Shown in pieces: positions 4,267 to 50,249 of a stretch of 52,191 nt of DNA (the stretch's first letter is position 1; the number at the start of each line of letters is the position of its first letter). The position numbers and the translations under genes were made by a program. The notes beneath the pieces are model-generated. The model made no database searches. It was not told the origin of the DNA and was given only the letters and a program-made list of their open reading frames with translations. The stretch is from an uncultured Prevotellaceae bacterium (GTDB lineage Bacteria; Bacteroidota; Bacteroidia; Bacteroidales; Bacteroidaceae), in the NCBI GenBank assembly GCA_945788095.1, contig CALZKW010000001.1, forward strand, positions 1 to 52,191. Reading direction: 5' to 3'.

Positions 4267-4407
4267 GGGAGGAATGCCCAATCCTATCCAGGAGGAATGC
4301 CCAATCCTATCCGGGAGGAATGCCCAATCCTATCCGGGAGGAATGCCCAATCCTATCAGGGAGGAATGCCCAATCCTATCAGGGAGGAATGCCCAATCCT
4401 ATCCAGG
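4267..4407. repeat. Tandem repeat, 6 units of 23 bp (GGGAGGAATGCCCAATCCTATCC)
   Basis: AATGCCC recurs at 4273, 4296, 4319, 4342, 4365 and 4388, exactly 23 bp apart. Only the junction triplet varies (cca/ccg/cag). The array lies in the divergent GH43/GH29 intergenic region. Confidence 0.95.
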
Positions 4408-4585
4408 AGATTTCGAGTGATAGAATAAGATTTATCTGTCGGATGAACCTAAATGTCAATCCGAAGGATCTCCGTAGAATCAGGGGAGAGGAAAATAGTT
4501 TACTTTCTGAGGAGAGGGGACCTGTTCTCCCCCACCCTATGGATGAAGAAGCAGGGGAAATGTTGGCGGGATGGATTTTTTGGTT

Positions 4586-5919: not shown

Positions 5920-5925
5920 AGGAAT

Positions 5926-5986
5926 AAGACCAATTAGACCAATTAGGCCAATTAGGCTAATTAGACCAATCATACCAATTACGATT
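5926..5986 (+). repeat. 9-bp tandem array (TAGNCCAAT), about 6.5 units, filling the GH29-cutC spacer
   Basis: Reads AAGACCAAT TAGACCAAT TAGGCCAAT TAGGCTAAT TAGACCAAT CATACCAAT TACGATT, followed directly by the ATG at 5987. Confidence 0.95.
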
Positions 5987-9896: not shown

Positions 9897-9922
9897 TCAC
9901 TCATCATCATCCCCTGATACAG

Positions 9923-9955
9923 GCGCTGCACACTCCGGTGTGCGGCGCTTTTTTT
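9923..9955 (+). terminator. Intrinsic terminator
   Basis: Stem GCGCTGCACAC / GTGTGCGGCGC (one G-U pair) with loop tccg, then TTTTTTT. Confidence 0.85.
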
Positions 9956-10003
9956 GAGACTCTCCCCCCGCCCCCCAGAAGGGAGGGGGCCGAGGGCGAT
10001 TTT

Positions 10004-10096
10004 AGATATGGGTTTCATCGCCACAGGATATGGGTCTCAGCACCATCAGGATATGGGTCTTGTTGCGCTGAGATATGGGTCTTTTTCTGCTGAGAG
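10004..10096. repeat. Four-unit array, period 22-23 bp, core GATATGGGTCT plus variable spacer of about 11 nt
   Basis: ATATGGG occurs at 10006, 10028, 10051 and 10073. Confidence 0.9.
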
Positions 10097-10195
10097 GTGG
10101 GGGGCAAAGTGTTAGTGAATAGTGAATAATACTTAATACCTTTAATACTGGTAATGTAGAGGAGAAAGCACATAGCACGCCCCAACAAGCCATTC

Positions 10196-10590
10196 ACGGC
10201 CATTTTCAGCACGGAAACATACTGTTGTAGGCCTACAACGGCCATTTTCAGCACGGAAAAATGCTGTTGTAGGCCTACGACGACGATTTTCTGCACGAAA
10301 AATGCTGTTGTAGGCCTACAACGACGATTTTCTGCACGGAAACATATTGTTGTAGGCCTACAATGACGATTTTCAGTGGAGAAACATATCGTCGTAGGCC
10401 TACAACGACGATTTTCAGTGGAGAAACATATCGTCGTAGGCCTACAACGACGATTTTCGGTGGAGAAACATATCGTCGTAGGCCTACAACGACGATTTTC
10501 GGTGGAGAAACATATCGTCGTAGGCCTACAACGACGATTTTCGGTGGAGAAACATATCGTCGTAGGCCTACAACGGACATTTTCGGTATT
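10196..10590. repeat. 42-bp tandem array, about 9.5 units, each unit carrying an AGGCCT-centred palindrome
   Basis: AGGCCT occurs at 10229, 10271, 10312, 10354, 10396, 10438, 10480, 10522 and 10564. Unit sequence is GATTTTCGGTGGAGAAACATATCGTCGTAGGCCTACAACGAC. Units 1, 3 and 4 carry the perfect 16-bp palindrome GTTGTAGGCCTACAAC; unit 2 has one mismatch. Confidence 0.95.
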
Positions 10591-10743
10591 GCGTTAAGGA
10601 ACATAGCATGTCTCAGCGGGGCATATATGGTCTGGCTGCGCAGGTTGTATAGTCCTTATAACTTCCTTTTAACTTCTTTTCAAAAAAAAGCCACGCACCG
10701 AGGGGAGAGTGCGTGGCTATTCGTATGTGGGAGGGGGAAGTAC

Positions 10744-13315: not shown

Positions 13316-15448
13316 TCACAGTTTCATCGAGAGGGAGATGCGGTCGCGGTCGAGATCGACATCGAGCACCTTGACCATCACCTGCTGGTGGAGGCTGACC
13401 ACCTCGGTGGGGTCCTTGACGAAGCGATTGGCCAGTTGGGACACATGCACGAGGCCCTTGGTGTGGACACCGATGTCGACAAAGGCGCCAAAGTTGGTGA
13501 TGTTGGTGACGATGCCGGGGAGCACCTGTCCGGGACGCAGGTCGGCGGGCTCGTGCACCGTGGGGTCGAAGGCAAAGGCCTGGAGCGGTGTGCGCGGATC
13601 GCGACCTGGCTTGTCGAGTTCGGCCATGATGTCATTAAGCGTGGGCAGACCCACCTCGTCGCTGACGTAGCGCTGTATGTCTATCTGCTCGCGCAGGGCC
13701 TTGTCCTTGAGGAGCTGCTCCACGGTGCACCCCAGGTCCTTGGCCATCTGCTCCACGAGGGCATAGCGCTCGGGATGCACGGCACTGTTGTCGAGAGGCT
13801 GGTCGCTGCCCTCCACACGGAAGAAGCCCGAACACATCTCGAAGGCCTTGGCACCCATGCGGGGCACCTTCATCAGTTCGCGGCGCGACTTGAAGCCGCC
13901 ATGCTCATCGCGGTAGTTGACAATGTTCTGGGCCAGGGCAGGACCGAGACCACTGACATAAGTGAGCAGGTACTTGCTGGCAGTGTTGACATTGACGCCC
14001 ACACGGTTGACACAGTTGACCACCGTCTGGTCGAGCGAGCGCTTAAGCTCTGCCTGGTTGACATCCTTCTGATACTGGCCCACGCCGATGCTGCTGGGAT
14101 CTATCTTGACCAACTCGGCCAGGGGGTCCATCAGGCGGCGACCGATGCTCACGGCACCACGCACGGTGACGTCGTGGTCGGGGAATTCCTCGCGGGCCAG
14201 TTTGCTGGCCGAGTAGATGCTGGCACCGTCCTCGCTCACGACATAGACCTCCACGCCATCGGGCAGGTCGAGATGGTTGACAAAATCCTCCGTCTCGCGG
14301 CCTGCCGTACCATTGCCGATGGAGATGGCCTCTATCTTGTATGCCTCCACGAGGTTCATAATAGTGCGCATGGCCTTGATGCGCTCTGCACGGGGTGGAT
14401 GGGGGAAGATGGCTTCATTGTGGAGCAGGGCGCCCTCGCTGCTGAGGCAGACCACCTTGCATCCGGTGCGGAAACCGGGGTCGATGGCCAGTACGCGCTT
14501 CTGGCCCAGGGGCGACGACATGAGGAGCTGCTCGAGATTGCGCACAAAGATGCGTATGGCCTCCTCGTCGGCACGCTGCTTGCTCAGGGCGGCAAACTCG
14601 GTCTCGATGCTGGGCAGGAGCAAGCGCTTGTAGCCATCCTGCACGGCTTCCTCGACGATGGTGGATGCCTCGCCACGACCGTGCACGAAATAGTGGGCCA
14701 CCTTGCTGACAGCCTGCTCGTCGTCGATGGTGATGCTCAGGCGCAGTATGCCCTCGTCCTCGCCTCGGCGCATGGCCAGGAGGCGGTGTGAGGTGCAGCG
14801 GTGGAGGGGTTCGCTCCAGTCGAAATAGTCGCGAAACTTCTGTCCTTCCTCCTCCTTGCCCTTGACGAGGCGGCTCACGATGGTGGCACCGCGGCGGAAG
14901 AAGCCGCGCACCGCATTGCGGCTGCGCTCGTGCTCGCTGACGCGCTCGGCGATGATGTCCTTGGCGCCCTGGAGCACCTTGTCCACGGTGTCGATGCCTT
15001 TATCGGCGTTGATGTAGCGCTCGGCTATCTGATGGATGGGCTGTCCCTTCTGGCTCTGTATGATGTTGGCCATGGGTTCGAGTCCTGCCTCGCGGGCCAC
15101 TTGGGCTCGTGTGCGTCGCTTCTGCTTGTAGGGCAGGTAGATGTCCTCGAGTTCGGTGGCATCCCATGTCTGGTCGATGCGCTGACGCAGTTCGTCGGTC
15201 ATCTTGTCCTGTCCCTCGATGGCGGTGATGATGGTGGCCTTGCGCTTCTCGGTCTCCTCGAGGCGCTCCACGGCCAGACTGATCTGTGCTATCTGCACCT
15301 CGTCCATGCCTCCGGTAGCCTCCTTGCGGTAGCGGCTGATGAAGGGTATGGTGGCTCCTTCCTGGAGCAGGGCGATGGTATTTTCAACGCCGCGTGCATT
15401 GAGTCCCGTGCTCTTGGTGACGAGCTCAGTGAGTAGTTCTATGGTCAT
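13316..15448 (-). CDS. tex: Transcription accessory protein Tex (S1 RNA-binding domain protein)
   Basis: 710 aa. N-terminus has TIPFISRYRKEATGGMDEV. YqgF-like and HhH regions are present, and the C-terminal S1 domain reads GIVTNITNFGAFVDIG...GLVHVSQL. Confidence 0.92.
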   Translation of the reverse strand: MTIELLTELVTKSTGLNARGVENTIALLQEGATIPFISRYRKEATGGMDEVQIAQISLAVERLEETEKRKATIITAIEGQDKMTDELRQRIDQTWDATELEDIYLPYKQKRRTRAQVAREAGLEPMANIIQSQKGQPIHQIAERYINADKGIDTVDKVLQGAKDIIAERVSEHERSRNAVRGFFRRGATIVSRLVKGKEEEGQKFRDYFDWSEPLHRCTSHRLLAMRRGEDEGILRLSITIDDEQAVSKVAHYFVHGRGEASTIVEEAVQDGYKRLLLPSIETEFAALSKQRADEEAIRIFVRNLEQLLMSSPLGQKRVLAIDPGFRTGCKVVCLSSEGALLHNEAIFPHPPRAERIKAMRTIMNLVEAYKIEAISIGNGTAGRETEDFVNHLDLPDGVEVYVVSEDGASIYSASKLAREEFPDHDVTVRGAVSIGRRLMDPLAELVKIDPSSIGVGQYQKDVNQAELKRSLDQTVVNCVNRVGVNVNTASKYLLTYVSGLGPALAQNIVNYRDEHGGFKSRRELMKVPRMGAKAFEMCSGFFRVEGSDQPLDNSAVHPERYALVEQMAKDLGCTVEQLLKDKALREQIDIQRYVSDEVGLPTLNDIMAELDKPGRDPRTPLQAFAFDPTVHEPADLRPGQVLPGIVTNITNFGAFVDIGVHTKGLVHVSQLANRFVKDPTEVVSLHQQVMVKVLDVDLDRDRISLSMKL

Positions 15449-17934
15449 TGCTTGATGATTTTACGGTTGTTGGTGATATAGATATGTCCATCGGTCAGCT
15501 GTGTGGCGGGCATGCCGTTGAGCTGATACGTGGGAGCGGTGTGCTGCTGGAGTGTGAGGGGGGCGATGGCCGTCATGGGTGTGCGGCTCTGGTAGACCTT
15601 CTGGCGTGTGCCGTCGTAGCCCACAGCCATGATGTAGGCAGCGGCGGTGTCATCACCCTCCCAGCGCTCATTGGGGTAGAGCACCTGTGTGGAGGTGTGT
15701 GGACGCTCACTGCCAAGGCCGTGGACGGTGATGCGAATGAGACGGTTGCAGACGTCGTAGGTCTCATAGGCCACGGCATTGCGCACGATGCTGTGATCGA
15801 TGGTCACCTTGGCGTCGGCGATGCTGTGTGTGCATCCCTCGCCCAGTGTCTGGGGCACGGTGAGGGGGAGTGCGTCGCGATAGATGGGATAGTTGTAGGC
15901 CGTGATGTAGTTGATCTCCTCGCCCACTTCGGGGTAACCCTTGGAGCACACGTGGGCCTTGAGCTGGTCTATCATGCCTTGGTTGATCTTGACCCACCCC
16001 GAGGTGTAGTCGCCGATGTACTCGCTGATGGGGCGGAGCATGCCGGCGCGCTCGAAGAAGGGCAGGAGATTGAGCCCAGTGCTGTCGCAGGCTATCTTCA
16101 TCCAGTTGACCTGCTGCTGTCCGGGGGTGGCATAGGTGGAGAGGTAGCCGGGCGTGGTGCGGAGGCTCTCGATGACCATGGGGATGATGTCGGGACACTT
16201 GCCGGCCTTGGTGCCCCACAGGCAGAGCTGCCAGAAGGGCACGAGCTTGACGAAGACACTGTGGGAGCGCTTCACGGCCATGGTGGTGCCCACGTAGCGG
16301 CCCTCGTAGTCGTAGTCGTCCACCTCGATGGGGGGCTGCTTGGAGGCATCCCACTCAGGGTCGTCCTGCAACTGCCATGCCACGCCCTTGCGGACGCCCT
16401 CCTCGAGGTAGGTCTGGATGCTGCCGCCGCGCATCTTCTCATATTCGCCCTGGCCGGCCTTGCCATCCTCGAGTCGGAGGTCGAGTTCGGTGCCATAGGC
16501 GTGAAGCTGACACCATGCGGCATAGATGTTGTTGGAGGTTTCGCCGAGTCCGGGCCAGAGGAATCCGTAGGCTATCTGATTGTTGTGGCCCCACTCATGA
16601 CCGACCACCCAATAGTCGAAATTCTCTATCGAGGGCTTCATGATGAATCCGAGGTAGGGCATGTCGCAGTAGGAGCCCGACCCGTCGGCAGCGATGCCCT
16701 TGCGGTCGGAGGCATAGAAGAGCTGGCGGTTGCGCACCTGGCGTCCGTAGCGGAAGAGTCCGAGCATGTCGCGCTGTCCCCACTGTATCTGTTCGTAGAT
16801 GTCGGTGAGGAGCTCGATGTCGTCGGGGCAGTAGGTCTTCCAGTGCCACAGGGGGAAGGCCAACTGGGCATGCTCGGTGCGCACGATGAAGATGGTGTAG
16901 TCCTTGGGCTGTCGGGCCAGCATCTGCTGCCAGTCGGCATTGGTCATGGTGTCCTTGTCCCAATAGCCTCGCACGGGGGCTGCCATGAAGTGGAGCTTGA
17001 CCTTGGGCGCGTGCTTGTAGTTGGGGGTGTAGTAGTCCACGAAGACGTTGCCCTCGCTCTGGGCCGTGATGAGGTTGATGCCATTCTTGAGCTGGTAGGT
17101 GGTCTCTGCCTCACTGTATCCCCATGCCTTGATGGTCAGCCCCACGGGGTCGTCGGCGATGCCCGAGACGGCCACCAGCATGCTCTCGCCCTCCTTGAGG
17201 TAGATGCCCGAGGGGTTCTCCCACCTGTTGTAGGGGTCCTTGGTGCCGAGCTCGCGCTGCAGGTCGTAGACGGGCTGGTAGGCCTCATACTGGCCCACTC
17301 GGAAACGGCCGTAGTCGCTGCCCTCGGCCAGCATGCAGTCCACGAGGGCCTTCACGTCGGGGTCGTCGATGCCCTCGCTGCTGGTCACCTCGGGGCGGAG
17401 TACAGAGTAGACATCATCAGAGAAGTAGGTCTGATAGAGCTGGCTCTTCTCTGTGTCGAGGGCATAGGCCTCCACCTCGGCTGCGGATGCCTTCTCGTAG
17501 TAGCCGTAGCGCACGGTGAAGCGCACACGGCGTATGTCGACGCCCTTGGGGATGGGGAATTCGGCGGGCTGGCTGCCATCGTCAAACTTGTCGTCGAAGA
17601 AGGTGACCCAGTCCGTCTCGCCCGATGCACTGACGGAGTACTGCACCTCCACTTCGTCCCAATAGCCCTCGGGGTTGCCGTCCTGGCGGGGCACGTAGCG
17701 CACCATATCGACGCGCTGTCGCTCGGGCAGCGTGAGCGTCAGTATAGCGGGATCGTAGGAGGCTATCTGCCCCGTCTGCCACACGGTGGATGCATCGCCG
17801 TCGATGACATTAGAGGCGGGGAATCCCGTGGCGGCCTTGTTGCTCTGCGCCTTCGAGAAGGCCACACGCTTGAACTGGGCCATCGCCGTGGCCGCAAGAC
17901 ATATCAGGAGGATTGTGGTCAGTGCTCTTTTCAT
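15445..17934 (-). CDS. M60-like (enhancin-type) zinc metallopeptidase with N-terminal F5/8 type C domain and T9SS CTD
   Basis: 829 aa with signal peptide MKRALTTILLICLAATAMAQ. Discoidin-like NVIDGDASTVWQT. HEXXH motif in VVGHEWGHNNQ. C-terminal YQLNGMPATQLTDGHIYITNNRKIIKQ. Confidence 0.85.
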   Translation of the reverse strand: MKRALTTILLICLAATAMAQFKRVAFSKAQSNKAATGFPASNVIDGDASTVWQTGQIASYDPAILTLTLPERQRVDMVRYVPRQDGNPEGYWDEVEVQYSVSASGETDWVTFFDDKFDDGSQPAEFPIPKGVDIRRVRFTVRYGYYEKASAAEVEAYALDTEKSQLYQTYFSDDVYSVLRPEVTSSEGIDDPDVKALVDCMLAEGSDYGRFRVGQYEAYQPVYDLQRELGTKDPYNRWENPSGIYLKEGESMLVAVSGIADDPVGLTIKAWGYSEAETTYQLKNGINLITAQSEGNVFVDYYTPNYKHAPKVKLHFMAAPVRGYWDKDTMTNADWQQMLARQPKDYTIFIVRTEHAQLAFPLWHWKTYCPDDIELLTDIYEQIQWGQRDMLGLFRYGRQVRNRQLFYASDRKGIAADGSGSYCDMPYLGFIMKPSIENFDYWVVGHEWGHNNQIAYGFLWPGLGETSNNIYAAWCQLHAYGTELDLRLEDGKAGQGEYEKMRGGSIQTYLEEGVRKGVAWQLQDDPEWDASKQPPIEVDDYDYEGRYVGTTMAVKRSHSVFVKLVPFWQLCLWGTKAGKCPDIIPMVIESLRTTPGYLSTYATPGQQQVNWMKIACDSTGLNLLPFFERAGMLRPISEYIGDYTSGWVKINQGMIDQLKAHVCSKGYPEVGEEINYITAYNYPIYRDALPLTVPQTLGEGCTHSIADAKVTIDHSIVRNAVAYETYDVCNRLIRITVHGLGSERPHTSTQVLYPNERWEGDDTAAAYIMAVGYDGTRQKVYQSRTPMTAIAPLTLQQHTAPTYQLNGMPATQLTDGHIYITNNRKIIKQ

Positions 17935-17959
17935 AGCTTACATATAATATATGGTGGGG

Positions 17960-18158
17960 AGGGGAGTACTCCATAGGGGGGGGCAATAGAGTACTTAATA
18001 GAGTGTCAATGGAGTACTCCATCTCGAGCAGAGCGCTCTATTGGTAGGAAGGAGAGCGCTCTGGTGGTGGGGAGCAGAGCGCTCTGCTTGATGCATGCGA
18101 TGCGCTTAGTATGGTGCAAATGATGCGCATTGCACGGGGAAGGTACTATGCGCATCAT
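17960..18158. repeat. Array with period of about 23 bp carrying nine short palindromic cores of three types
   Basis: GAGTACT occurs at 17964, 17989 and 18012. GAGCGCTC occurs at 18031, 18054 and 18077. ATGCGC(AT) occurs at 18100, 18123 and 18148. The array lies in the 230-bp spacer upstream of the M60 gene. Confidence 0.85.
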
Positions 18159-19111: not shown

Positions 19112-19133
19112 CCGTTGTCTGTTGTCCGTTGTC
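19112..19133 (-). repeat. Heptamer repeat (sense GACAACG GACAACA GACAACG) just after the glnN stop
   Basis: Plus strand reads CCGTTGT CTGTTGT CCGTTGT C. Confidence 0.85.
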
Positions 19134-21357: not shown

Positions 21358-21393
21358 TTGGGCTAATTGGACCAATTGGATTAATTGGACTAA
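21358..21393 (-). repeat. 9-bp tandem array (sense TAGNCCAAT), 4 units, in the aguB-glnN spacer
   Basis: Plus strand reads TTGGGCTAA TTGGACCAA TTGGATTAA TTGGACTAA. The last unit overlaps the aguB stop codon. Confidence 0.9.
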
Positions 21394-22265
21394 TCAATGA
21401 ATCGCTTGGTGAGACCACCGAACTCCTCGATGCGACGGTCGCGCAGGAAGGGCCACCAGCGGCGCACATTCTCGCTGCGCTGCATGTCGACCTCGACCAC
21501 CACGTTCTCCTCCTTGTCCTTGGAGGCGCGGTAGAGCACCTCGCCCTGGGGACCGGCTACAAACGAACTGCCCCAGAACTGTATGCCGTTGGTCTGACCG
21601 CTGGGGTCGGGCTCGTGGCCTACCCTGTTGACAGCAATGACGGGCAGACCATTGGCCACAGCATGGCCGCGCTGCACGGTGGTCCATGCCTCGCGCTGGC
21701 GCTCCTGCTCCTCGGGGGTGTCGCTGCTCTCATAGCCGATGGCGGTGGGATAGATGAGCAGTTCGGCTCCCTGCAGGGCCATGAGGCGCGCTCCCTCGGG
21801 ATACCACTGGTCCCAGCACACCTGCACGCCGAGACGGCCCAGAGAGGTCTGGATGGGGTGGAAACCGAGATCGCCGGGGGTGAAATAGAACTTCTCGTAG
21901 TAGGCGGGATCGTCGGGGATGTGCATCTTGCGATACTTGCCGGCTATGCTGCCATCAGTGTCGAAGACCACGGCGGTGTTGTGGTAGAGGCCTGCTGCAC
22001 GACGCTCGAAGAGGGAGGTAACGAGCACTATGCCATACATGCGGGCTATCGTGCTGTAGAAGTCGGTGCTGGGACCGGGGATGGGCTCAGCCAGATTGCA
22101 GAGGTCGACATTCTCTGTCTGACAGAAGTACAGACTGTTGTGGAGCTCCTGCAGCACCACGAGCTGGGCGCCCTGCTTCACCACGTCGGCTATGTTGTTG
22201 GCCAGTTTCTCTTTGTTTTGCTGCACATCAGCCGTGCAGCTCTGCTGGATGATTCCTATTTTCAT
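21390..22265 (-). CDS. aguB: N-carbamoylputrescine amidase (carbon-nitrogen hydrolase family)
   Basis: 291 aa. LVVLQELH, CWDQWYPE and the adjacency to agmatine deiminase support the call. Confidence 0.88.
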   Translation of the reverse strand: MKIGIIQQSCTADVQQNKEKLANNIADVVKQGAQLVVLQELHNSLYFCQTENVDLCNLAEPIPGPSTDFYSTIARMYGIVLVTSLFERRAAGLYHNTAVVFDTDGSIAGKYRKMHIPDDPAYYEKFYFTPGDLGFHPIQTSLGRLGVQVCWDQWYPEGARLMALQGAELLIYPTAIGYESSDTPEEQERQREAWTTVQRGHAVANGLPVIAVNRVGHEPDPSGQTNGIQFWGSSFVAGPQGEVLYRASKDKEENVVVEVDMQRSENVRRWWPFLRDRRIEEFGGLTKRFID

Positions 22266-22275
22266 TGTTTATTGA

Positions 22276-22311
22276 TTGGACTAATTGGACTAATAAGGCT
22301 AATTGCCCCCC
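22276..22311 (-). repeat. 9-bp tandem array (sense TAGNCCAAT), 3-4 units, in the aguA-aguB spacer
   Basis: Plus strand reads TTGGACTAA TTGGACTAA TAAGGCTAA TTGCCCCCC. Confidence 0.85.
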
Positions 22312-23442
22312 CTACTTCACCACCCCGAGGGGGAACTGCATGGTGCAGCAGTGGAGCGATCCGTGCTGTATGATGAGGGCCTGGCAGTCGATGCCTACTA
22401 TCTCGTGGTGGGGGAAGGCCAGTTGCAGTTGCTTGCGGGCCTGTGCGTCGAGCTCGGGCTGACCATAGGTGGGCATGAGCACGGCTTCGTTGACAATGAG
22501 GAAGTTGGCATAGGTGGCGGGCAGTCGCTCGCCGTCCTCGTCGTAGGCTGGAGCTGCCATGGGCAGTGGCACGAGGCGATAGGGTTCGCCCTCTGCGGTG
22601 CGGAATGTCTTGAGCTGCTCCTCCATCAGGTGGAGTTCCTCGTAGTGCTCGTCCTCGGTGTCGAGACACTGCACATAGGCGATGGTGTCGCAGGGACAGA
22701 GGCGCGCCAGGGTGTCGACGTGGCTGTCGGTGTCGTCGCCGGCCAGATAGCCGTGGTCGAGCCAGAGGATGCGCTGGGCATGCAGGCTGCGCTTGAGGCG
22801 CTCCTCGATGTCGGCCTGCGTGAGGGGCTGGTTGCGGTGGGGAGCGAGCAGACACTGACTGGTGGTGAGGATGGTGCCGCAGCCGTCGCTCTCGATGCTG
22901 CCGCCCTCGAGCACAAAGTCGAGGTGGTCCTCATAGGTGCCGCGGAGCACCTGCTGCTCCATCATGCGGCGGCAGATCTGGTTGTCGAGCGCGGCTTCAA
23001 ACTTCTCGCCCCATCCATTGAAGCAGAAGTCGAGGAGGGTGGGTCCCTGCTCGGTGAGGAGGGTGATGAAACCATGGTCGCGCGCCCAGGTGTCATTGGT
23101 AGGTGCCTCGTGGAGACTGATATTGGCCACCACGGCCGAGGGCAGTTTCTCGTCGAGGAGAGCCTTGACCTCGCTGACGTGGGGGGTGATGATAATGAGG
23201 CGCTCGCGGCGCGCTATCTCGTAGGCCATGCGCAGGTAGCACCCGGTGACCTGTGGCAGTATGGGGGCCCAGTCGGTGTCGGCATGGGGCCAAGTGAGTT
23301 GCACACCGCTCTGGGGATACCACTCGGCAGGCAGATGGGTGGTGCGCACCTCGGTGGCCTCCGGACCTGCCACACGGTCGAAGCGCAGCGTGCGGGTCAG
23401 GTCTTCTATCGTTGTCGTTGGTTTACTGAATCGTATTGCCAT
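22312..23442 (-). CDS. aguA: Agmatine deiminase (PAD_porph family)
   Basis: 376 aa. Contains LPAEWYPQ, NDTWARDHG, GGSIESDG, DTDSHVD and the C-terminal GSLHCCTMQ. Confidence 0.88.
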   Translation of the reverse strand: MAIRFSKPTTTIEDLTRTLRFDRVAGPEATEVRTTHLPAEWYPQSGVQLTWPHADTDWAPILPQVTGCYLRMAYEIARRERLIIITPHVSEVKALLDEKLPSAVVANISLHEAPTNDTWARDHGFITLLTEQGPTLLDFCFNGWGEKFEAALDNQICRRMMEQQVLRGTYEDHLDFVLEGGSIESDGCGTILTTSQCLLAPHRNQPLTQADIEERLKRSLHAQRILWLDHGYLAGDDTDSHVDTLARLCPCDTIAYVQCLDTEDEHYEELHLMEEQLKTFRTAEGEPYRLVPLPMAAPAYDEDGERLPATYANFLIVNEAVLMPTYGQPELDAQARKQLQLAFPHHEIVGIDCQALIIQHGSLHCCTMQFPLGVVK

Positions 23443-23493
23443 TTTTTAGGTTGTAGGTTATAGGTGGGAGGTTGATTGAGGTTATGAGGTCCT

Positions 23494-23538
23494 ATTGGGC
23501 TTATTAGGCTAATTGGGCTAATTGGGCTAATCCCTAAA
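23494..23538 (-). repeat. 9-bp tandem array (sense TAGNCCAAT), about 5 units, in the GH125-aguA spacer
   Basis: Plus strand reads ATTGGGCTT ATTAGGCTA ATTGGGCTA ATTGGGCTA ATCCCTAAA. It is flanked on both sides by CCTAAAA-type heptamers. Confidence 0.9.
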
Positions 23539-23572
23539 ATCCCAAAAGCGAAGCGCCCTAAAACCTAAAACC

Positions 23573-25000
23573 TCACCTACCATACACATCGATCACCAGT
23601 TCGCCAAAGAGGGTGTTGGCCCATGCGAACCATGAGCGGGTGAACTTGGTGGGGTTGTCCTTGTTGAAACTCTCGTGCATGAAGCCTGTGCCGGCATCGG
23701 TGGCCAGGAGTTGGGCGATGCAAGCCTCCTGTTCGCTGCGGTTGGTGGTGGTGAGGGCCTTCATGATGATGCTCATGGGCCACACGTTGTCGTAGCCGGT
23801 GTGGGGACCGCCGATGCCCTCGCCAGCCTTGCCGCTGAAGAAGTAGGGATTCTGGTGGCTCCATATCATGCGGCGGGTGTTCTGGTAGATGGGGTCGGAG
23901 ATGGACATCTCGGTGAGATAGGGCAGAGAGAGGAGCGAGGGGGCGTTGGCATCGTCCATGAGGAGATGCGAACCGAAACCGTCGACCTCGAAGGCGTAGA
24001 CCTTGCCATACTGGGGCGTGTCGACCACGGCGTAGCGCCTCAGGGCTGCCTCCACCTCATTGGCCAGAGCGGTGCACTCCGCAGAGAGTGCGTCGTTGTG
24101 GTTCACCTTGTCGAGCACCGTGGCGGCCTTGCGCAGGATGCTGACGGCAAAGAAATTGCTGGGCACGAGGAAGGGGAACACGCAGCTGTCGTCGGAGGGA
24201 CGGAAGAAACTGGCAATGAGCCCCACGGGATTGGCGGGATGGCCGTAGCCGTAGTTGCTCACCGTGTCGTGGAGGGCACTGGTGGTGCGGGCAAAGGTGT
24301 AGGGTGTGCGGTTGCCACGCTTGCGCTGCTGGTCGCGGAAGACCTGTAGCATCTTCTCCACAGCCTCTATCCACTTGGCGTCGAAGATGGTGTCGTCGCC
24401 CGTCAGCAACCAGTATTCGTAGGCCAGACGCACGGGATAGCAGAGCGAGTCGATCTCGTACTTGCGCTCATGGAGCTCAGGCTTCATGTCGGTGTAGTCG
24501 GACTGCCACTCGCTGCCCGTGGGGCCGAAGTTGAAGGCATTGGCATAGGGGTCGATGCAGATGCTCTTGATCTGGCGGCGGATGACGCCGCGTATCATGC
24601 GCTGCAGGTCCTTGTCGTCCTTCATATAGCGCAGATAGGGCCACACTTGGGCGGCACTGTCGCGCAACCACATGGCATGGATGTCGCCCGTGATGACAAA
24701 GGTGTCGTCGTCGCCGTCCTCCGTCTTGCTGTAGTGCACCGTGGTGTCGAGGGTATTGGGAAAACAGTTCTGAAAAGTCCACCAGAGTTGTGGATTCTTG
24801 CGGAGCAGTATGTCGCGCATCGACTCTATCTTGCGGTCGATGGCCTTGCTGCGGAAGAGGCGCTTCTCGGGCGCCGGGCGCTGCGAGGTGAAGGTATCGG
24901 CCTCCACACGGGCCAACTCGGGGATGGTGGGCATCTCCGCCGCCCCACTCAGCGTAGGGAGCGCAAAGAGAGACGCCATGAGGATATGGATGGATTTCAT
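23573..25000 (-). CDS. GH125 exo-alpha-1,6-mannosidase (DUF1237 family)
   Basis: 475 aa with a signal peptide. TGDIHAMWLRDSAAQVWPYLRY is a GH125 hallmark. Confidence 0.85.
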   Translation of the reverse strand: MKSIHILMASLFALPTLSGAAEMPTIPELARVEADTFTSQRPAPEKRLFRSKAIDRKIESMRDILLRKNPQLWWTFQNCFPNTLDTTVHYSKTEDGDDDTFVITGDIHAMWLRDSAAQVWPYLRYMKDDKDLQRMIRGVIRRQIKSICIDPYANAFNFGPTGSEWQSDYTDMKPELHERKYEIDSLCYPVRLAYEYWLLTGDDTIFDAKWIEAVEKMLQVFRDQQRKRGNRTPYTFARTTSALHDTVSNYGYGHPANPVGLIASFFRPSDDSCVFPFLVPSNFFAVSILRKAATVLDKVNHNDALSAECTALANEVEAALRRYAVVDTPQYGKVYAFEVDGFGSHLLMDDANAPSLLSLPYLTEMSISDPIYQNTRRMIWSHQNPYFFSGKAGEGIGGPHTGYDNVWPMSIIMKALTTTNRSEQEACIAQLLATDAGTGFMHESFNKDNPTKFTRSWFAWANTLFGELVIDVYGR

Positions 25001-25081
25001 ATTGGGCTAATTGGGCTAATAAGACTAATTGGGCCTATTGGGCTAATAAGACTAATTGGGCTAATCGGGCCTATCATGCTA
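25001..25081 (-). repeat. 9-bp tandem array (sense TAGCCCAAT), 9 units with 27-bp higher-order periodicity, filling the GH92-GH125 spacer
   Basis: Plus strand reads ATTGGGCTA ATTGGGCTA ATAAGACTA / ATTGGGCCT ATTGGGCTA ATAAGACTA / ATTGGGCTA ATCGGGCCT ATCATGCTA. Confidence 0.95.
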
Positions 25082-25088
25082 CCTCCCT

Positions 25089-27254
25089 CTATGGGCGGTG
25101 CTTCTTGTCGGTGCCCCACTTGCTGGGCTTGCTGGTCATATAGAATTCCAGTTTGCCGCCTTGGATGATGTCCTTGTAGTCGATGTAGCTGTAGGGATAG
25201 TTCTTGCCGTTGAGCTTGACGTGAGAGACGTAGATGTTCTGCTCGCTGTTGTTGTGCGACACGATGGTGAACGTCTTGCCGTCGCCCACGTTGAGGTCGG
25301 CGCGCTCCACCACGGGAGAGCCTAAGATGTAGCGGCCGCCGCAGGGAGCCACCTGATAGAGACCCATCGACGAGAGGATGTACCAGGCCGACATCTGACC
25401 TACGTCCTCGTTGCCGCAGAGACCCGCAGGCTGGTCGGTGTAGAGTTCGCGCATCACCTGGCGCACCTTCTCGGCGGTCTTCCAGGGCTGGCCCACATAG
25501 TTGTAGAGATAGAGCACGTGGTGGCTGGGCTCATTGCCGTGGGCATACTGTCCGATCAGACCCGAGATGTCGGGATTGGCATCAGCGTTGAGGGTGCTCT
25601 CGGCCAGGAAGAGGGAGTCGAGACGCGCGATGAAGGCCTCCTCGGAGGGGAAGCAACCTACGAGTCCGTGGACGTCGTGGGGCACGAGCCAGGTGTATTG
25701 CCAGGGGTTGCCTTCGGTGTAGTCGGACGTCTGATGACAAGGATTGAATCCCTCGCGAGGGCGGAACTGGCCATCGCTGTCGAGGGCACGCATGCACTGC
25801 AGCTGGGGATCGAAGAGGCGCTTGTAGCCCATGCTGCGGTTGTGGAAGTAGGCGCTGTCCTCCACCATGCCGAGCATGCCGGCCACCTCGGCAGCGCTCC
25901 AGTCTGCGATGTAATACTCGAGGGTCTTGGCCACAGGCTCCCAGTCGCCATGATTGTAGGGGATATAACCCAGTTGTTTCATCCAGCCCATCGAGCGGTT
26001 GTCCTTCATCAGACTCGCCTTCATGGCCTCGAAGGCTTCCTTACGGTCGAAGCCTTCCACGCCCTTCAGGCACATATCGGCCAGCACGGGCACAGCGGGA
26101 GAGCCCACCATGCAATAGGTCTCGTTGCTGTGGAGGTGCCACACGGGCAGTTCGCCCTGCTCACGATAGATGTGGAGCATCGTTTGGGCATAGTCGGTCA
26201 GTTTGTCGCGCATCACGAGGGTCTGCAGGGGATGCAGGGCGCGGTAGGTATCCCAGAGCGACCAGGTGGTGTAGTTCTGAAACGTTACTGCACGGCGCAC
26301 ACGTCCGTCCGACCCCATATAGTCGCCGTTGACATCGTTCCACACCTGGGGCGCCACGAGCATGTGATACATCGAGGTGTAAAAGATGCGGCGGTCGCGC
26401 TCGTTGGCAAAGGTGGCCTGGATGCGCCCCAACTCCTTGTTCCACTTCTCGTCGGCAGCGCGATAGACGGCAGCAAAGTCCCATGTGGGCATCTCAGCCA
26501 GGAGGTTCTGCATGGCATTGGTCTCGCTCACGGGCGACACAGCCACCTTGACCATCACGGGGTCGTAGGGCCCCACCTCGAAGGTGGCCTGTCCGTAGGG
26601 TGCGTCGAGCGAAGCGCTGAGCCAGTGGTGAATGGGCTGCGAGAACTGTGCCACGAAATACACCTCCTGATGGCCTGCCCACCCGCGGCTGATGCGATAG
26701 CCGGCTATGGTGTGGTCGTCGAGCTGATACATACGGGCCTGCTTGAGGCGATCGCCCACACCATTGTCGAGGTCGATGATGATGCGCGCATTGTTGCTGC
26801 CGCGCTGAAAGGTGTATTTATGGAGGGCAACGCGCTCGGTGGCGGTCATCTCGCACACGATATTGCTCCCGCCGAGCACCACCTTGTAGTAGCCCGGATG
26901 TGCCACCTCAGTCTCCTTGCGCATGGGAGCAGCCAGACCCTGTCGCGAGAGTTCCACCTCACCCATGGCTGGCATAAGGGCGATATCACCCAGGTCGCTA
27001 CAACCGGTACCGCTGAGGTGGGTCTGTGCAAATCCCACTATCGAGTCGCCCGACTGATGATAGCCCGAGCACCAGTCCCAACCGGTCTCGATCTGCGTCG
27101 GACCGACATTGACCATACCCTGGGGCACGTTGGCACCCACAAAGACATGTCCGTGGTCGCCAGTGCCAATCATAGGATCCACATACTCTGTGAGGCGCTG
27201 ACCAAACGAAGCAGCCGCCAACAACAGGGAAGAAAGAATAGCAATTGTTCTCAT
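25089..27254 (-). CDS. GH92 alpha-mannosidase
   Basis: Start taken at MRTIAILSSLLLAAASFGQ (cat at 27252-27254). YVDPMIGTGDHGHVFVGANVPQGMVNVGPT is a GH92 hallmark. Confidence 0.9.
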   Translation of the reverse strand: MRTIAILSSLLLAAASFGQRLTEYVDPMIGTGDHGHVFVGANVPQGMVNVGPTQIETGWDWCSGYHQSGDSIVGFAQTHLSGTGCSDLGDIALMPAMGEVELSRQGLAAPMRKETEVAHPGYYKVVLGGSNIVCEMTATERVALHKYTFQRGSNNARIIIDLDNGVGDRLKQARMYQLDDHTIAGYRISRGWAGHQEVYFVAQFSQPIHHWLSASLDAPYGQATFEVGPYDPVMVKVAVSPVSETNAMQNLLAEMPTWDFAAVYRAADEKWNKELGRIQATFANERDRRIFYTSMYHMLVAPQVWNDVNGDYMGSDGRVRRAVTFQNYTTWSLWDTYRALHPLQTLVMRDKLTDYAQTMLHIYREQGELPVWHLHSNETYCMVGSPAVPVLADMCLKGVEGFDRKEAFEAMKASLMKDNRSMGWMKQLGYIPYNHGDWEPVAKTLEYYIADWSAAEVAGMLGMVEDSAYFHNRSMGYKRLFDPQLQCMRALDSDGQFRPREGFNPCHQTSDYTEGNPWQYTWLVPHDVHGLVGCFPSEEAFIARLDSLFLAESTLNADANPDISGLIGQYAHGNEPSHHVLYLYNYVGQPWKTAEKVRQVMRELYTDQPAGLCGNEDVGQMSAWYILSSMGLYQVAPCGGRYILGSPVVERADLNVGDGKTFTIVSHNNSEQNIYVSHVKLNGKNYPYSYIDYKDIIQGGKLEFYMTSKPSKWGTDKKHRP

Positions 27255-27275
27255 ACGCGCGCAATTTATTGTATG

Positions 27276-27283
27276 CAAAGATA
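27276..27283 (-). promoter_or_regulatory. Candidate -7 box (TATCTTTG) for the GH92 gene
   Basis: The reverse complement of caaagata matches TAnnTTTG, 21 nt upstream of the ATG at 27254. Confidence 0.5.
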
Positions 27284-27520
27284 GCACTTTTCGCCGACAT
27301 ACGCAAGCAAAAAGGCATTTTTATACCCCCTTACAACACTCCTCTCCCACCCCGCATTTGCGCGCCAACTGACCAACCACCCGCCGGCCAACTGCGCAGC
27401 ATTCTTTGGAAAGCTACCGCGAAGCTACAAGAGAAGTTACAGAGAATCCAAAGAAAACAGAAATCAAATTACGGATTTCACAAAAACAAAACGCGCCCAA
27501 GAGGCTTCGTATACACTATG

Positions 27521-27577
27521 TTTTCGTCCGTCCGTCCAAAACGCTATATATAGGCGTTTTGGACGGACGGACGAAAA
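27521..27577. repeat. Near-perfect 57-bp palindrome H1 containing (GTCC)3
   Basis: TTTTCGTCCGTCCGTCCAAAACGC - tatatatag - GCGTTTTGGACGGACGGACGAAAA. Confidence 0.9.
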
Positions 27578-27650
27578 GGGCATACGAAAAATCGCGTCGC
27601 ACACCTTGAACTTCATAAAAGAGATGGGTAACAGCACAAAAAAAAATATG

Positions 27651-27779
27651 ACTGTCCGGGGAAATCAAGACCCTGTAAGAGTCGCTATAGAGTAGCGTAG
27701 GGCGTCAACCCTACGTATGGCACTACCCCCTATCCTTTGGCCCTGTAAGGGCCTCCTAACTAATACGTCATGAAAATAT
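27651..27779 (+). repeat. Structured dispersed element R of about 130 nt, copy 1 (candidate ncRNA or MITE)
   Basis: Closely similar to 33382-33512, with only scattered substitutions and small indels. Hairpins: GACCC-tgtaa-GAGTC (27669-27683), CGTAGGG-cgtcaa-CCCTACG (27696-27715), GGCCC-tgtaa-GGGCC (27739-27753). Confidence 0.8.
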
Positions 27780-27978: not shown

Positions 27979-28028
27979 CGTCCATCCATCCAAAACGCTC
28001 AATGCAGGCGTTTTGGATGGATGGATGG
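27979..28028. repeat. Palindrome H2, related to H1, with (ATCC)n arms
   Basis: CGTCCATCCATCCAAAACGC - tcaatgcag - GCGTTTTGGATGGATGGATGG. It shares the CCAAAACGC-N9-GCGTTTTGG core with H1. Confidence 0.9.
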
Positions 28029-29549: not shown

Positions 29550-29600
29550 GTTTTTAGGTTTTAGGGCGCTTCGCCTTTGAGGTTTTAGGTTGGTCTGCTC

Positions 29601-29645
29601 GTCAACAGAATGAACGGAGTTTTTTCTGTTTGTTCCGTTGTTAAC
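29601..29645 (-). terminator. Imperfect hairpin of the AACAACGGAACAAACAGAA family, downstream of the POT transporter gene
   Basis: CAACAGAATGAACGGAG / TTCTGTTTGTTCCGTTGTTAA. The pairing is imperfect. Confidence 0.35.
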
Positions 29646-29672
29646 CTAAAACCTACAACCTAAGACCTTAAT

Positions 29673-33088: not shown

Positions 33089-33145
33089 GACAACAGACAA
33101 CGGACAACGGACTACGGCTGCGGACTGTTGACCTCCTGACTCACA
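33089..33145 (+). repeat. Heptamer repeat GACAACA GACAACG GACAACG GACTACG and degenerate follow-on units, directly after the SulP stop
   Basis: Period 7, read directly from the sequence. Confidence 0.85.
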
Positions 33146-33213: not shown

Positions 33214-33381
33214 TGGGGGCGGCGAAGCAAAGTTCACATAGCACGCCCCGCGCTCGGCATCCCGAAGGCAAAATTGGGCTATGAACTGCTGCCCCTTCGG
33301 GGCGTATTAGAGTCTATTTTTCTTTATTGATGATTTTTCTACCCCCCTACCTTTTTAGTTATCCCCCCACCTTATATTATT

Positions 33382-33512
33382 ACTGTCCGGGGAAATCAAG
33401 ACCCAGTAAGGGTCGCTATAGATTAGCGTAGGGCGTCAACCCTACGTATGGCATTGCCCCCCCTATCCTTTGGCCCTGTAAGGGCCTCCTGACTAATACG
33501 TTATGAAAATAT
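33382..33512 (+). repeat. Structured dispersed element R, copy 2
   Basis: Same orientation as copy 1. Hairpin 1 is perfect here (GACCC-agtaa-GGGTC). Confidence 0.8.
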
Positions 33513-37724: not shown

Positions 37725-37777
37725 GTCCGTTGTCTGTTGTCTTCCAACCGTTGTCCGTAGTCCGTTGTCTGTTGTCT
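37725..37777 (-). repeat. Heptamer repeat (sense GACAACR/GACTACG), directly after the CE12 stop
   Basis: Sense strand reads TAG-tA GACAACA GACAACG GACTACG GACAACG GTTGGAA GACAACA GACAACG GACATTG. Confidence 0.85.
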
Positions 37778-49966: not shown

Positions 49967-50170
49967 ATGAAAGGCAAGAAGGACAAAAACGAACAGGTGA
50001 CCACCCCCACAGAGCTCCCCGCAGCCATTCCCACATCTACCACTCCCGAAACAGAGACTAAAGAGAGCGCCCCCACGGTCAGCACATCTACCGACTTCAA
50101 GCGCGGAGCCAAGGTGATCTTCCAGGATGACGTGGTGCCCCGCCCATTTCAGACTACGGACTACGGATGA
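49967..50170 (+). CDS. Small hypothetical protein (67 aa, T/P/E-rich)
   Basis: Codon usage is GC3-biased like neighbouring genes. I recognised no homology. The 3' end runs into the GACTACG heptamers. Confidence 0.35.
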   Translation: MKGKKDKNEQVTTPTELPAAIPTSTTPETETKESAPTVSTSTDFKRGAKVIFQDDVVPRPFQTTDYG

Positions 50171-50249
50171 CAGACTACGGCTGTTGTTCGTAGTCCGTAG
50201 ATTATTTATTGTTGACCATTGACTGTTGACCTTCGACTTTTGACCAATT
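50152..50249 (+). repeat. Heptamer repeats GACTACG x3 plus hairpin, then TTGACNN x5
   Basis: GACTACG GACTACG GATGACA GACTACG. Hairpin GACTACG-gctgttgtt-CGTAGTC. Then TTGACCA TTGACTG TTGACCT TCGACTT TTGACCA. Confidence 0.85.

Follow-up and report, generated by a model that had tools for sequence, protein, structure and literature searches.

A 9-bp tandem repeat family of gut Bacteroidales with strand-asymmetric folding fills a GH92-GH125 gene junction

Introduction

The short tandemly repeated repetitive (STRR) heptamers of heterocystous cyanobacteria, reportedly described by Mazel et al. in 1990, are one precedent for the element studied here, a 9-bp tandem array between two α-mannosidase genes of the glycoside hydrolase families GH92 and GH125. 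The array lies at positions 25001-25081 of a 52,191-nt stretch from an uncultured Prevotellaceae bacterium (contig CALZKW010000001.1, assembly GCA_945788095.1). We call this whole stretch the window, the array in question the focal array, and the arrays that share its unit the 9-mer family.

The tandem repeats of Borgs, which are archaeal extrachromosomal elements, consist of perfect units that are unique to each locus (PMC9879509). In the 5′ untranslated regions of hmw1A and hmw2A of Haemophilus influenzae, a heptamer repeat pairs with a G-rich arm into a hairpin that is processed by RNase III and controls the adhesin (PMC12721329, PMC8262952). Rho utilization (rut) sites are defined chiefly by an excess of C over G and by low structure (PMC12360218). 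In Bacteroidia, the initiation of translation is modulated through mRNA structure and upstream adenines rather than through Shine–Dalgarno pairing, the relevant features being low pairing around the start codon and adenines at −3, −6, −12, and −13 (PMC6847099).

Our leading explanation of the focal array, in which we place about as much belief as doubt, is a slippage-driven, quasi-palindromic minisatellite that is kept preferentially in the orientation leaving the mRNA unfolded, and that serves as a passive linker with no dedicated control function.

Results

The focal array and its variation between strains

The focal array fills the GH92-GH125 spacer from 7 nt past the GH92 stop codon up to the GH125 start codon. 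These genes and their neighbors are confirmed by Pfam, and the junction is composed as follows.

25001..25081, minus strand: focal array, nine 9-nt units (sense TAGCCCAAT and variants) making up three 27-nt higher-order units
25082..25088, minus strand: 7-nt nonrepeat remnant that separates the first unit from the GH92 stop codon; sense AGGGAGG
25089..27287, minus strand: GH92 α-mannosidase, the upstream gene; stop codon 25089-25091; open reading frame (ORF) with Pfam PF07971 and PF17678
23573..25000, minus strand: GH125 α-mannosidase, the downstream gene; start codon 24998-25000 (CAT on the plus strand); ORF with Pfam PF06824

The preliminary description had placed nine 9-bp units at exactly this position, abutting the GH125 start and 7 nt from the GH92 stop, and this stands. 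Read along the plus strand, the units are ATTGGGCTA ATTGGGCTA ATAAGACTA ATTGGGCCT ATTGGGCTA ATAAGACTA ATTGGGCTA ATCGGGCCT ATCATGCTA; they are contiguous and run head to tail, as in a variable-number tandem repeat (minisatellite). Tandem Repeats Finder reports a period of 9 with 7.8 copies and a period of 27 with 2.6 copies at 88% matches, the latter bearing out the 27-bp higher-order structure that had been claimed. The window has 17 occurrences of the word ATTGGNCTA, for which 1.06 are expected; a count of 17 was reached in 0 of 100 shuffles.

We compared the window with six independent contigs that encode an identical GH125 protein (100% identity). The focal array is shorter by exactly 27 bp, one higher-order unit, in contig L005; in contig L003 a second array of the family, at 23494, is longer by 18 bp (two units) and the adjacent heptamer array by 7 bp; and contigs L003 and L006 carry a TAGCCCAAT unit where the window has TAGCATGAT. 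Copy number thus differs among close strains (L005 and L003 versus the window), as is expected of a minisatellite, and the comparison across strains and assemblies that had been suggested yields differences at the focal and 23494 arrays. No variation was found at the arrays at 5923 and 13241, where the few other contigs are identical to the window. A 26-aa ORF (MIGPISPISLISPIGPISLISPISPI; 24997-25077, minus strand) runs through the focal array, preceded by AGGGAGG and ending in a TGA that overlaps the GH125 ATG; it is probably fortuitous because its own ATG is missing in the strain variants L003 and L006.

Five further arrays of the window, all real as judged by Tandem Repeats Finder and sequence inspection, belong to the family.

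23494..23531, minus strand: about 4 units, GH125-PAD spacer
22275..22305, minus strand: about 3 units, PAD-CN_hydrolase spacer, beside a poly-G run
21358..21394, minus strand: about 4 units, CN_hydrolase-GSIII spacer; the TAG of the first unit is the CN_hydrolase stop codon
13241..13304, minus strand: 7 units, Tex-transglutaminase spacer
5923..5981, plus strand: about 6.6 units (TAGACCAAT/TAGGCCAAT), GH29-CutC spacer

All six arrays of the window lie between same-strand genes with TAGNCCAAT in the sense of transcription, as had been stated. The 23494 array sits within a long hairpin with the inverted heptamer arms (TTAGGTT)n and (AACCTAA)n, and at 13241 the last unit, CCCAAT, together with a G, provides the ATG of the downstream gene. 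At about 22306-22312, immediately past the PAD stop codon, the poly-G run reads G6, G7, or G8 depending on the strain contig.

Copy-number changes of this kind could in principle serve as a rheostat or contingency locus, slippage altering the spacer length and thereby tuning the downstream gene in the manner of hmw, and transcribed intergenic repeats are known to tune expression (PMC12721329). We regard this as highly improbable for the focal array. Downstream of the six arrays lie genes for GH125, agmatine deiminase, amidase, GSIII, transglutaminase, and CutC, with no conserved gene association; they are housekeeping or metabolic and not variable, and none is a surface, adhesin, or restriction-modification gene, as would be characteristic of phase-variable contingency simple sequence repeats. 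Moreover, six arrays in 52 kb are too many for individual contingency switches, the sense RNA contains no hairpin comparable to the hmw element, and most independent contigs of the strain have identical arrays.

The preliminary description had also found no TAnnTTTG promoter box for genes preceded by arrays, in contrast to other genes of the window. Within 200 nt upstream, the strict motif is indeed absent from all six array-preceded genes, but it precedes only 5 of 30 window genes, and at that rate its absence from six is not significant (P ~0.33). The boxes that had been attributed to GH29, POT, and GH92 were not recovered with the strict motif. A promoter role of the array itself was rejected: TAnnTTTG matches the unit on neither strand, and the window has few strict boxes anyway.

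Distribution across genomes

A strand-neutral scan with (TAGNCCAAT)x3 of one genome per species (185,579 species) returned at least 117 array stretches, compared with ~0.004 expected from random sequence. Among the matches listed, 99 stretches lie in metagenome-assembled genomes (MAGs) of gut Bacteroidales, including Sangeribacter, Muribaculum, Paramuribaculum, 'Candidatus Liminaster', CAG:485, and others, several MAGs contributing at least 8-11 loci each. The listed matches outside the Bacteroidales are scattered (Vibrio, a Chlamydiae MAG, Limnothrix, Pasteurellaceae, bacteria of the candidate phyla radiation, and others), and one of them is a coding (QLD)n repeat. A universal driver behind these was considered and rejected, as composition-matched control 9-mers are equally sporadic in viral contigs: the real unit forms two arrays there and two control 9-mers form three and four. 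We take the scattered matches to be a background sampling of 9-mer space by ordinary tandem repeats, and the amplification in Bacteroidales to be the real signal. Outside arrays, solo units occur only at chance frequency (observed/expected 1.05), and we therefore reject an origin of the family from a frequent spacer word.

Many (TAGNCCAAT)n matches lie at the extreme ends of MAG contigs (L019, L029, L048, L058, L061, and others), where the arrays appear to break short-read assemblies. Two groups of matches outside the Bacteroidales have features of their own. The soil Chlamydiae MAG CAWCVY01 (L027, L034, L065, L107, L117) has at least five loci with long GTCCAA-type 9-mer arrays, often preceded by an inverted array (TTGGAC...)n; this looks like an independent, hairpin-forming repeat family. 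Three species of Pasteurellaceae (L045, L091, L106) share a conserved locus of exactly three TAGTCCAAT units, with an inverted TTGGACTAA ~30 nt further on.

Evolution of the array-bearing junctions

The window matches contigs from pig-gut metagenomes and derives from an uncultured member of the Bacteroidales with 56% GC. To follow the GH92-GH125 junction across relatives, the nearest GH125 homologues were located on their contigs. Relatives L210 and L211 (GH125 77% and 73% identical to that of the window, GH92 75-76%) have GH92 and GH125 genes that overlap by 4 nt in the ATGA manner, the classic arrangement of translational coupling. In a sister species (L208/L209, 80%), an unrelated 22-nt array of 5.1 copies, A/C-rich with 10% G, occupies the whole junction from stop to start, and its unit takes in the GH92 stop region. 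With either no spacer or an unrelated array in its place, the 9-mer is therefore not conserved at this site. Relative L211 also has a 22-nt array of 4.2 copies (CCCTTAGCGATAAGCGTCCGAA) at 2845-2936, directly after its GH125 stop codon.

The GH29-CutC spacer of the sister species lacks an array and has one copy of ACCAATCA(C)ATACC, corresponding to the final unit plus 3′ flank of the window's 5923 array; this correspondence was read by eye, as MAFFT misaligned the spacers of the window and L208. The match suggests that the 5923 array may have expanded in place from a local seed. The Tex protein of the window is 74% identical to its best named matches ('Bacteroidaceae bacterium' MAGs) and 79-84% identical to further relatives, and the Tex locus of more distant relatives has compact spacers without such arrays. 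Likewise, the 9-mer is absent from the orthologous PAD-CN_hydrolase spacers of 80 other Bacteroidales contigs (CN_hydrolase orthologues 74-86% identical). These spacers often hold other short arrays (CAACATT, GAATAGT, AAACGACC, and others), whose copy number differs between near-identical contigs.

Unit symmetry and strand-asymmetric folding

In tandem, the degenerate unit TRG-N-CYAAT is its own reverse complement, and the two 'orientations' of an array differ only in whether the R and Y positions are A,C or G,T. Perfectly palindromic forms of the unit are TAGNCTAAT and TGGNCCAAT. On the mRNA-sense strand there are 148 AC, 51 GT, 22 AT, and 11 GC units; by majority form, 47 arrays are AC-major and 15 GT-major, and some contain both C/A and G/T forms.

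The two strands fold differently because G·U or G·T pairs close the quasi-palindrome where C·A cannot. The focal spacer RNA folds at −18.0 kcal/mol in sense (C/A), no more than shuffled sequences do (z = +0.34), and at −36.7 kcal/mol in antisense (G/U; z = −2.57). As single-stranded DNA, the array itself gives −4.7 kcal/mol in sense (z = −0.48) and −11.7 kcal/mol in antisense (G/T; z = −3.65). Across the family, the mean is −0.157 kcal/mol per nt for the sense and −0.371 kcal/mol per nt for the antisense strand. The sense strand had been described as an unstructured linker with no self-complementarity, which fits the G-poor sense RNA; the complementary strand, however, is strongly self-complementary.

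This asymmetry also admits a reading of the array as an orientation-switchable RNA module, the C/A form acting as an unfolded linker or loading site and the G/U form as a stable 3′ hairpin, and/or of the dyad as a site read by a lineage-specific dimeric protein. The G/U hairpins would end or protect the upstream transcript. As the orientations differ at only two positions of a self-complementary motif, switching needs no inversion, and two transitions per unit would suffice to interconvert the forms. We consider such a module quite unlikely.

Tests for other element types

Beyond partial units, the flanks of 97 arrays have an information content of ~0. A mobile element of the repetitive extragenic palindrome (REP) or miniature inverted-repeat transposable element (MITE) type was rejected for want of conserved termini or target-site duplications at the array flanks, and a CRISPR array because the focal units are contiguous and not separated by unique spacers. 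At the gathering threshold Rfam returned no match for the array, its sole match in the window being Acido-Lenti-1 at 33399-33446. No terminator-like hairpin or intrinsic terminator was found in the array-only spacers, which fits cotranscription of the flanking genes. A G-quadruplex, (GGG N6)n, on the complementary strand is possible only for the 23% of units with C at position 4, and so cannot explain the family. Two further ideas were dropped for lack of support: a resemblance to the DnaA box (TTAGNCCAA versus TTATNCACA, 5/8 positions) and an origin as a 9-bp target duplication of a transposon.

Orientation, spacer type, and position

Gene calling in the array loci used a self-trained codon model, which recovers the database calls in the window; longest-ORF calling was discarded, having picked shadow ORFs at 15448-17976 and 22303-23463. 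The 99 listed Bacteroidales loci were then distributed over the spacer types as follows, the remainder being edge cases with no called gene on one side.

Same-strand spacers, array in sense: 44 arrays
Same-strand spacers, array in antisense: 12 arrays
Convergent spacers: 12 arrays
Divergent spacers: 10 arrays

In same-strand spacers the sense orientation thus accounts for 79% (44:12, p = 2e-5), and the 12 antisense arrays proved genuine on inspection. Co-directional, convergent, and divergent spacers hold 56, 12, and 10 arrays, compared with 56.9, 10.8, and 10.3 expected from the numbers of spacers in these loci (p = 0.93). The preliminary description had taken the family to be specifically intercistronic. 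Among these loci, the split over spacer types matches background and same-strand spacers are not preferred; the window arrays all lie in same-strand spacers because they lie in co-directional gene runs. Of the bias in orientation and the avoidance of convergent and divergent spacers that had been anticipated, the first is found, but the second is not, both spacer types being occupied at background rates.

The claim of a constant polarity fares similarly. It holds for six of six arrays in the window and persists as a bias across the family, but at 79%, not 100%, and at a level that composition predicts. In array-free same-strand spacers of the same genomes, the base frequencies on the sense strand are A.37, C.21, G.15, and T.27, which give the C/A form odds of 1.97 per unit and of 3.9 to 1 (80%) for a two-unit seed. 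The observed polarity of 79% is indistinguishable from this prediction.

Sense arrays lie a median of 16.5 nt from the upstream stop and 47 nt from the downstream start; 30 are nearer the stop and 14 nearer the start (Wilcoxon p = 0.004), and 11 of 44 lie within 20 nt of the downstream start. Arrays of the family have a median of 5 units (45 nt). Among all short arrays (period 6-12) in same-strand spacers, those with G>C are start-proximal in 22 cases versus stop-proximal in 48, compared with 53 and 53 for those with C>G (Fisher p = 0.02).

These positions bear on one of the possible roles raised in the preliminary description, a ribosome standby or reinitiation pad. In its adaptive form, the unfolded, G-poor array would be selected as a standby or landing site for de novo loading on the downstream cistron. 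Several features of the focal junction suit this proposal: the sense RNA is unfolded, the array directly adjoins the ATG, with A at −3 and −12, the 13241 and 5923 arrays also reach a start, and in Bacteroidia initiation relies on low structure and upstream adenines (PMC6847099). The different A/C-rich array at the same junction of the sister species could likewise reflect convergent selection for an unstructured linker. However, the focal array has C, not A, at −6 and −13, two relatives have a 4-nt overlap and no linker at all, 21% of same-strand arrays are in the folding orientation, and arrays exist in convergent spacers with no start codon after them. Sense arrays favor the stop side, with only the above quarter within 20 nt of the start, which speaks against a start-proximal reinitiation pad as a rule for the family, and we consider the standby proposal unlikely for the focal array.

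Proximity to the upstream stop would suit a different role, in which C>G unfolded RNA recruits Rho after the stop codon so that transcription of the downstream gene needs prompt translation. The focal array is rut-like in the C>G bias of its sense unit, with three C to one G, and in its low structure; its own length of 81 nt falls within the optimum of 60-90 nt (PMC12360218), that of the median family member, 45 nt, below it. We nevertheless think Rho loading very unlikely, as 45 nt is short for a rut site, about half of the units have only two C (position 4 being A or T), 21% of same-strand arrays are in the G-rich orientation, and termination would carry a cost inside the apparent operons of functionally paired genes in which the arrays lie.

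Other intergenic repeats

Across 1.09 Mb of Bacteroidales loci that had been picked without regard to repeats, the density of arrays with periods of 5-12 is 11-fold higher in intergenic than in coding sequence, and periods 7 and 8 predominate. A recurrent Bacteroidales architecture places a G-containing array after a stop codon and its complement before the next start, forming a tandem-repeat hairpin; in the window, 23443-23572 and 29550-29672 are instances of it. Genomes that bear the 9-mer are also rich in other intergenic arrays.

Several such repeats were noted in the window. The inverted heptamers (TTAGGTT)n and then (AACCTAA)n form long hairpins across the whole same-strand spacers 23443-23572, 29550-29672, and 998-1107, the first of which folds with its flanks (23413-23575) at −39.9 kcal/mol. 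A second repeat family, of heptamers (GACAACG/GACTACG)n, lies at 19112-19133, 33089-33117, 37748-37776, and 50152-50180, just past stop codons and with a constant sense polarity; several of these are followed by hairpins of the same heptamers. The convergent spacer 9897-10743 contains a 42-bp array of 8.9 copies (10214-10587) whose unit is the hairpin CGTCGT-AGGCCTACA-ACGACG; on the minus strand these units score as terminator-like. The divergent spacer that lies upstream of the gene for the GH29 fucosidase has a 23-bp array of 6.2 copies (GGGAGGAATGCCCAATCCTATCC, 95% matches; 4267-4409) with a GCCCAAT core that resembles the 9-mer family.

A direct repeat of ~135 nt (27647-27779 and 33378-33512, 93-96% identical) brackets 5.7 kb with genes for a Na/H antiporter, POT, and SulP. 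Both copies include, on the minus strand, an Acido-Lenti-1-like hairpin, which scores 40.9 bits at 33399-33446 and 31.7 bits at 27668-27715, the latter below the gathering score of 37. Hairpins at 27525-27571 and 27979-28025 have tetranucleotide-repeat arms, (CGTC or CATC)n, and a shared CCAAAACGC...GCGTTTTGG core.

Discussion

We interpret the focal array as a passive, slippage-driven minisatellite. It would be a local expansion of a dispersed, fast-evolving 9-bp family, (TRG-N-CYAAT)n, that appears to have proliferated across the intergenic spacers of gut Bacteroidales. Expansion and contraction would be driven by replication slippage or unequal recombination, with assistance from the hairpin-forming G/T-rich DNA strand. 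The array would be transcribed within a GH92-GH125 polycistronic mRNA, in which the C/A form could persist as a G-poor, unfolded linker compatible with the Shine–Dalgarno-independent, structure-sensitive initiation of Bacteroidia, and the G/U form ahead of a start codon would be selected against. This folding filter or, equivalently, the general A>T and C>G composition of sense spacers would yield the 4-to-1 polarity. The 9-mer sequence itself would carry no specific signal, and the effect of the array would be to put an 88-nt passive linker in the place of tight translational coupling.

This interpretation builds on the observed tandem structure and copy-number variation, the flank-less array edges, the derived state of the junction, the strand-asymmetric folding, and the orientation statistics with their null model. 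A number of points weigh against it. Cotranscription, slippage, and the selective filter are inferred from sequence. Our codon-model caller overlooks a number of genes (79% coding). Of the six window arrays, three touch a start codon or come within a few nt of one, above the family average. The same 9-mer is found at many loci per genome and in many genera, with which a neutral model struggles. Finally, the unit logo is uneven: G3, C5, A8, and T9 are ~99% conserved, and position 4, the dyad center, uses all bases (A.36, C.23, G.12, T.28). A dimer that recognizes a specific sequence would leave such a pattern, although the search pattern through which the arrays were ascertained biases the logo. 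The uneven logo and the recurrence of one unit at many loci are the main points that our interpretation leaves unexplained.

Both points would speak for a lineage-specific dimeric DNA-binding protein, or an RNA-binding protein, that reads the dyad ATTRG-N-CYAAT every 9 nt, the degenerate unit being a circular palindrome centered on its sole free position and nearly invariant at four others. Further consideration makes such a binding array quite unlikely in our estimate. Solo or paired sites do not occur outside arrays; the dyad symmetry is statistically weak, with 3/4 strict pairs (P ~0.05 given the center); with a period of 9 bp, neighboring sites fall on different faces of the helix; the downstream genes share no conserved association; and composition-matched control 9-mers also make sporadic arrays elsewhere.

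If the minisatellite interpretation is correct, gut Bacteroidales carry an undescribed and abundant class of hypervariable intergenic repeats, which would account for breaks in short-read assemblies and be usable as ready-made markers for strain typing. The orientation bias would then be a natural read-out of selection against folded intergenic mRNA in bacteria that do without Shine–Dalgarno sequences. The GH92-GH125 comparison documents a shift from translationally coupled genes with a 4-nt overlap to genes separated by an expandable linker. Should one of the less probable explanations hold instead (specific binding, Rho loading, or a rheostat), the arrays would add a new control element within operons of an important gut lineage; a switchable module would amount to a previously unrecognized operon-internal regulatory layer that evolves quickly through copy number.

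Comparison with known systems

The 9-mer family resembles STRR repeats in its short head-to-tail units, in its many intergenic loci per genome, and in being common to related genera. It differs from them in the unit length, 9 nt and not 7, although heptamer arrays do coexist with it in the window, and in the host, a pig-gut member of the Bacteroidales, which is of a different phylum and not a heterocystous cyanobacterium. It further differs in being quasi-palindromic with strand-asymmetric folding, and its orientation relative to transcription is quantified here. With Borg repeats, the family shares flanking partial repeats, rapid turnover, an independent origin at each site, and, on the gene-carrying strand, an enrichment in A and C with depletion of T and G; in both, some first units start inside gene ends, and in Borgs the lengths of intergenic units are mostly not multiples of three (PMC9879509). 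Unlike the perfect, locus-specific units of Borgs, those of the 9-mer family are imperfect copies of one unit at many chromosomal loci and in many genera.

Like the hmw heptamers, the focal array is a short tandem repeat ahead of a gene, of variable copy number and, in hmw, transcribed (PMC12721329, PMC8262952); in contrast to the hmw hairpin, its sense RNA is unfolded, and the gene that follows encodes a glycoside hydrolase. Its C>G bias and low structure are shared with rut sites, as is, for the focal array itself, a length within 60-90 nt (PMC12360218). Rut sites, however, are not tandem repeats, and the median of the family is only 45 nt; Rho dependence is here putative. Palindromes of the REP/BIME (bacterial interspersed mosaic element) and MITE types are likewise intergenic, dispersed, and of dyad symmetry, whereas the 9-mer family is tandem, is not a single palindromic unit, and has neither conserved ends nor target duplications. 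The preliminary description knew of no element with this consensus, and a literature search that included the literal sequences returned no published description of the family. It belongs neither to the STRR nor to the Borg repeats, to REP/MITE elements, to CRISPR, or to any Rfam family; its place is in the known class of dispersed intergenic short tandem repeats.

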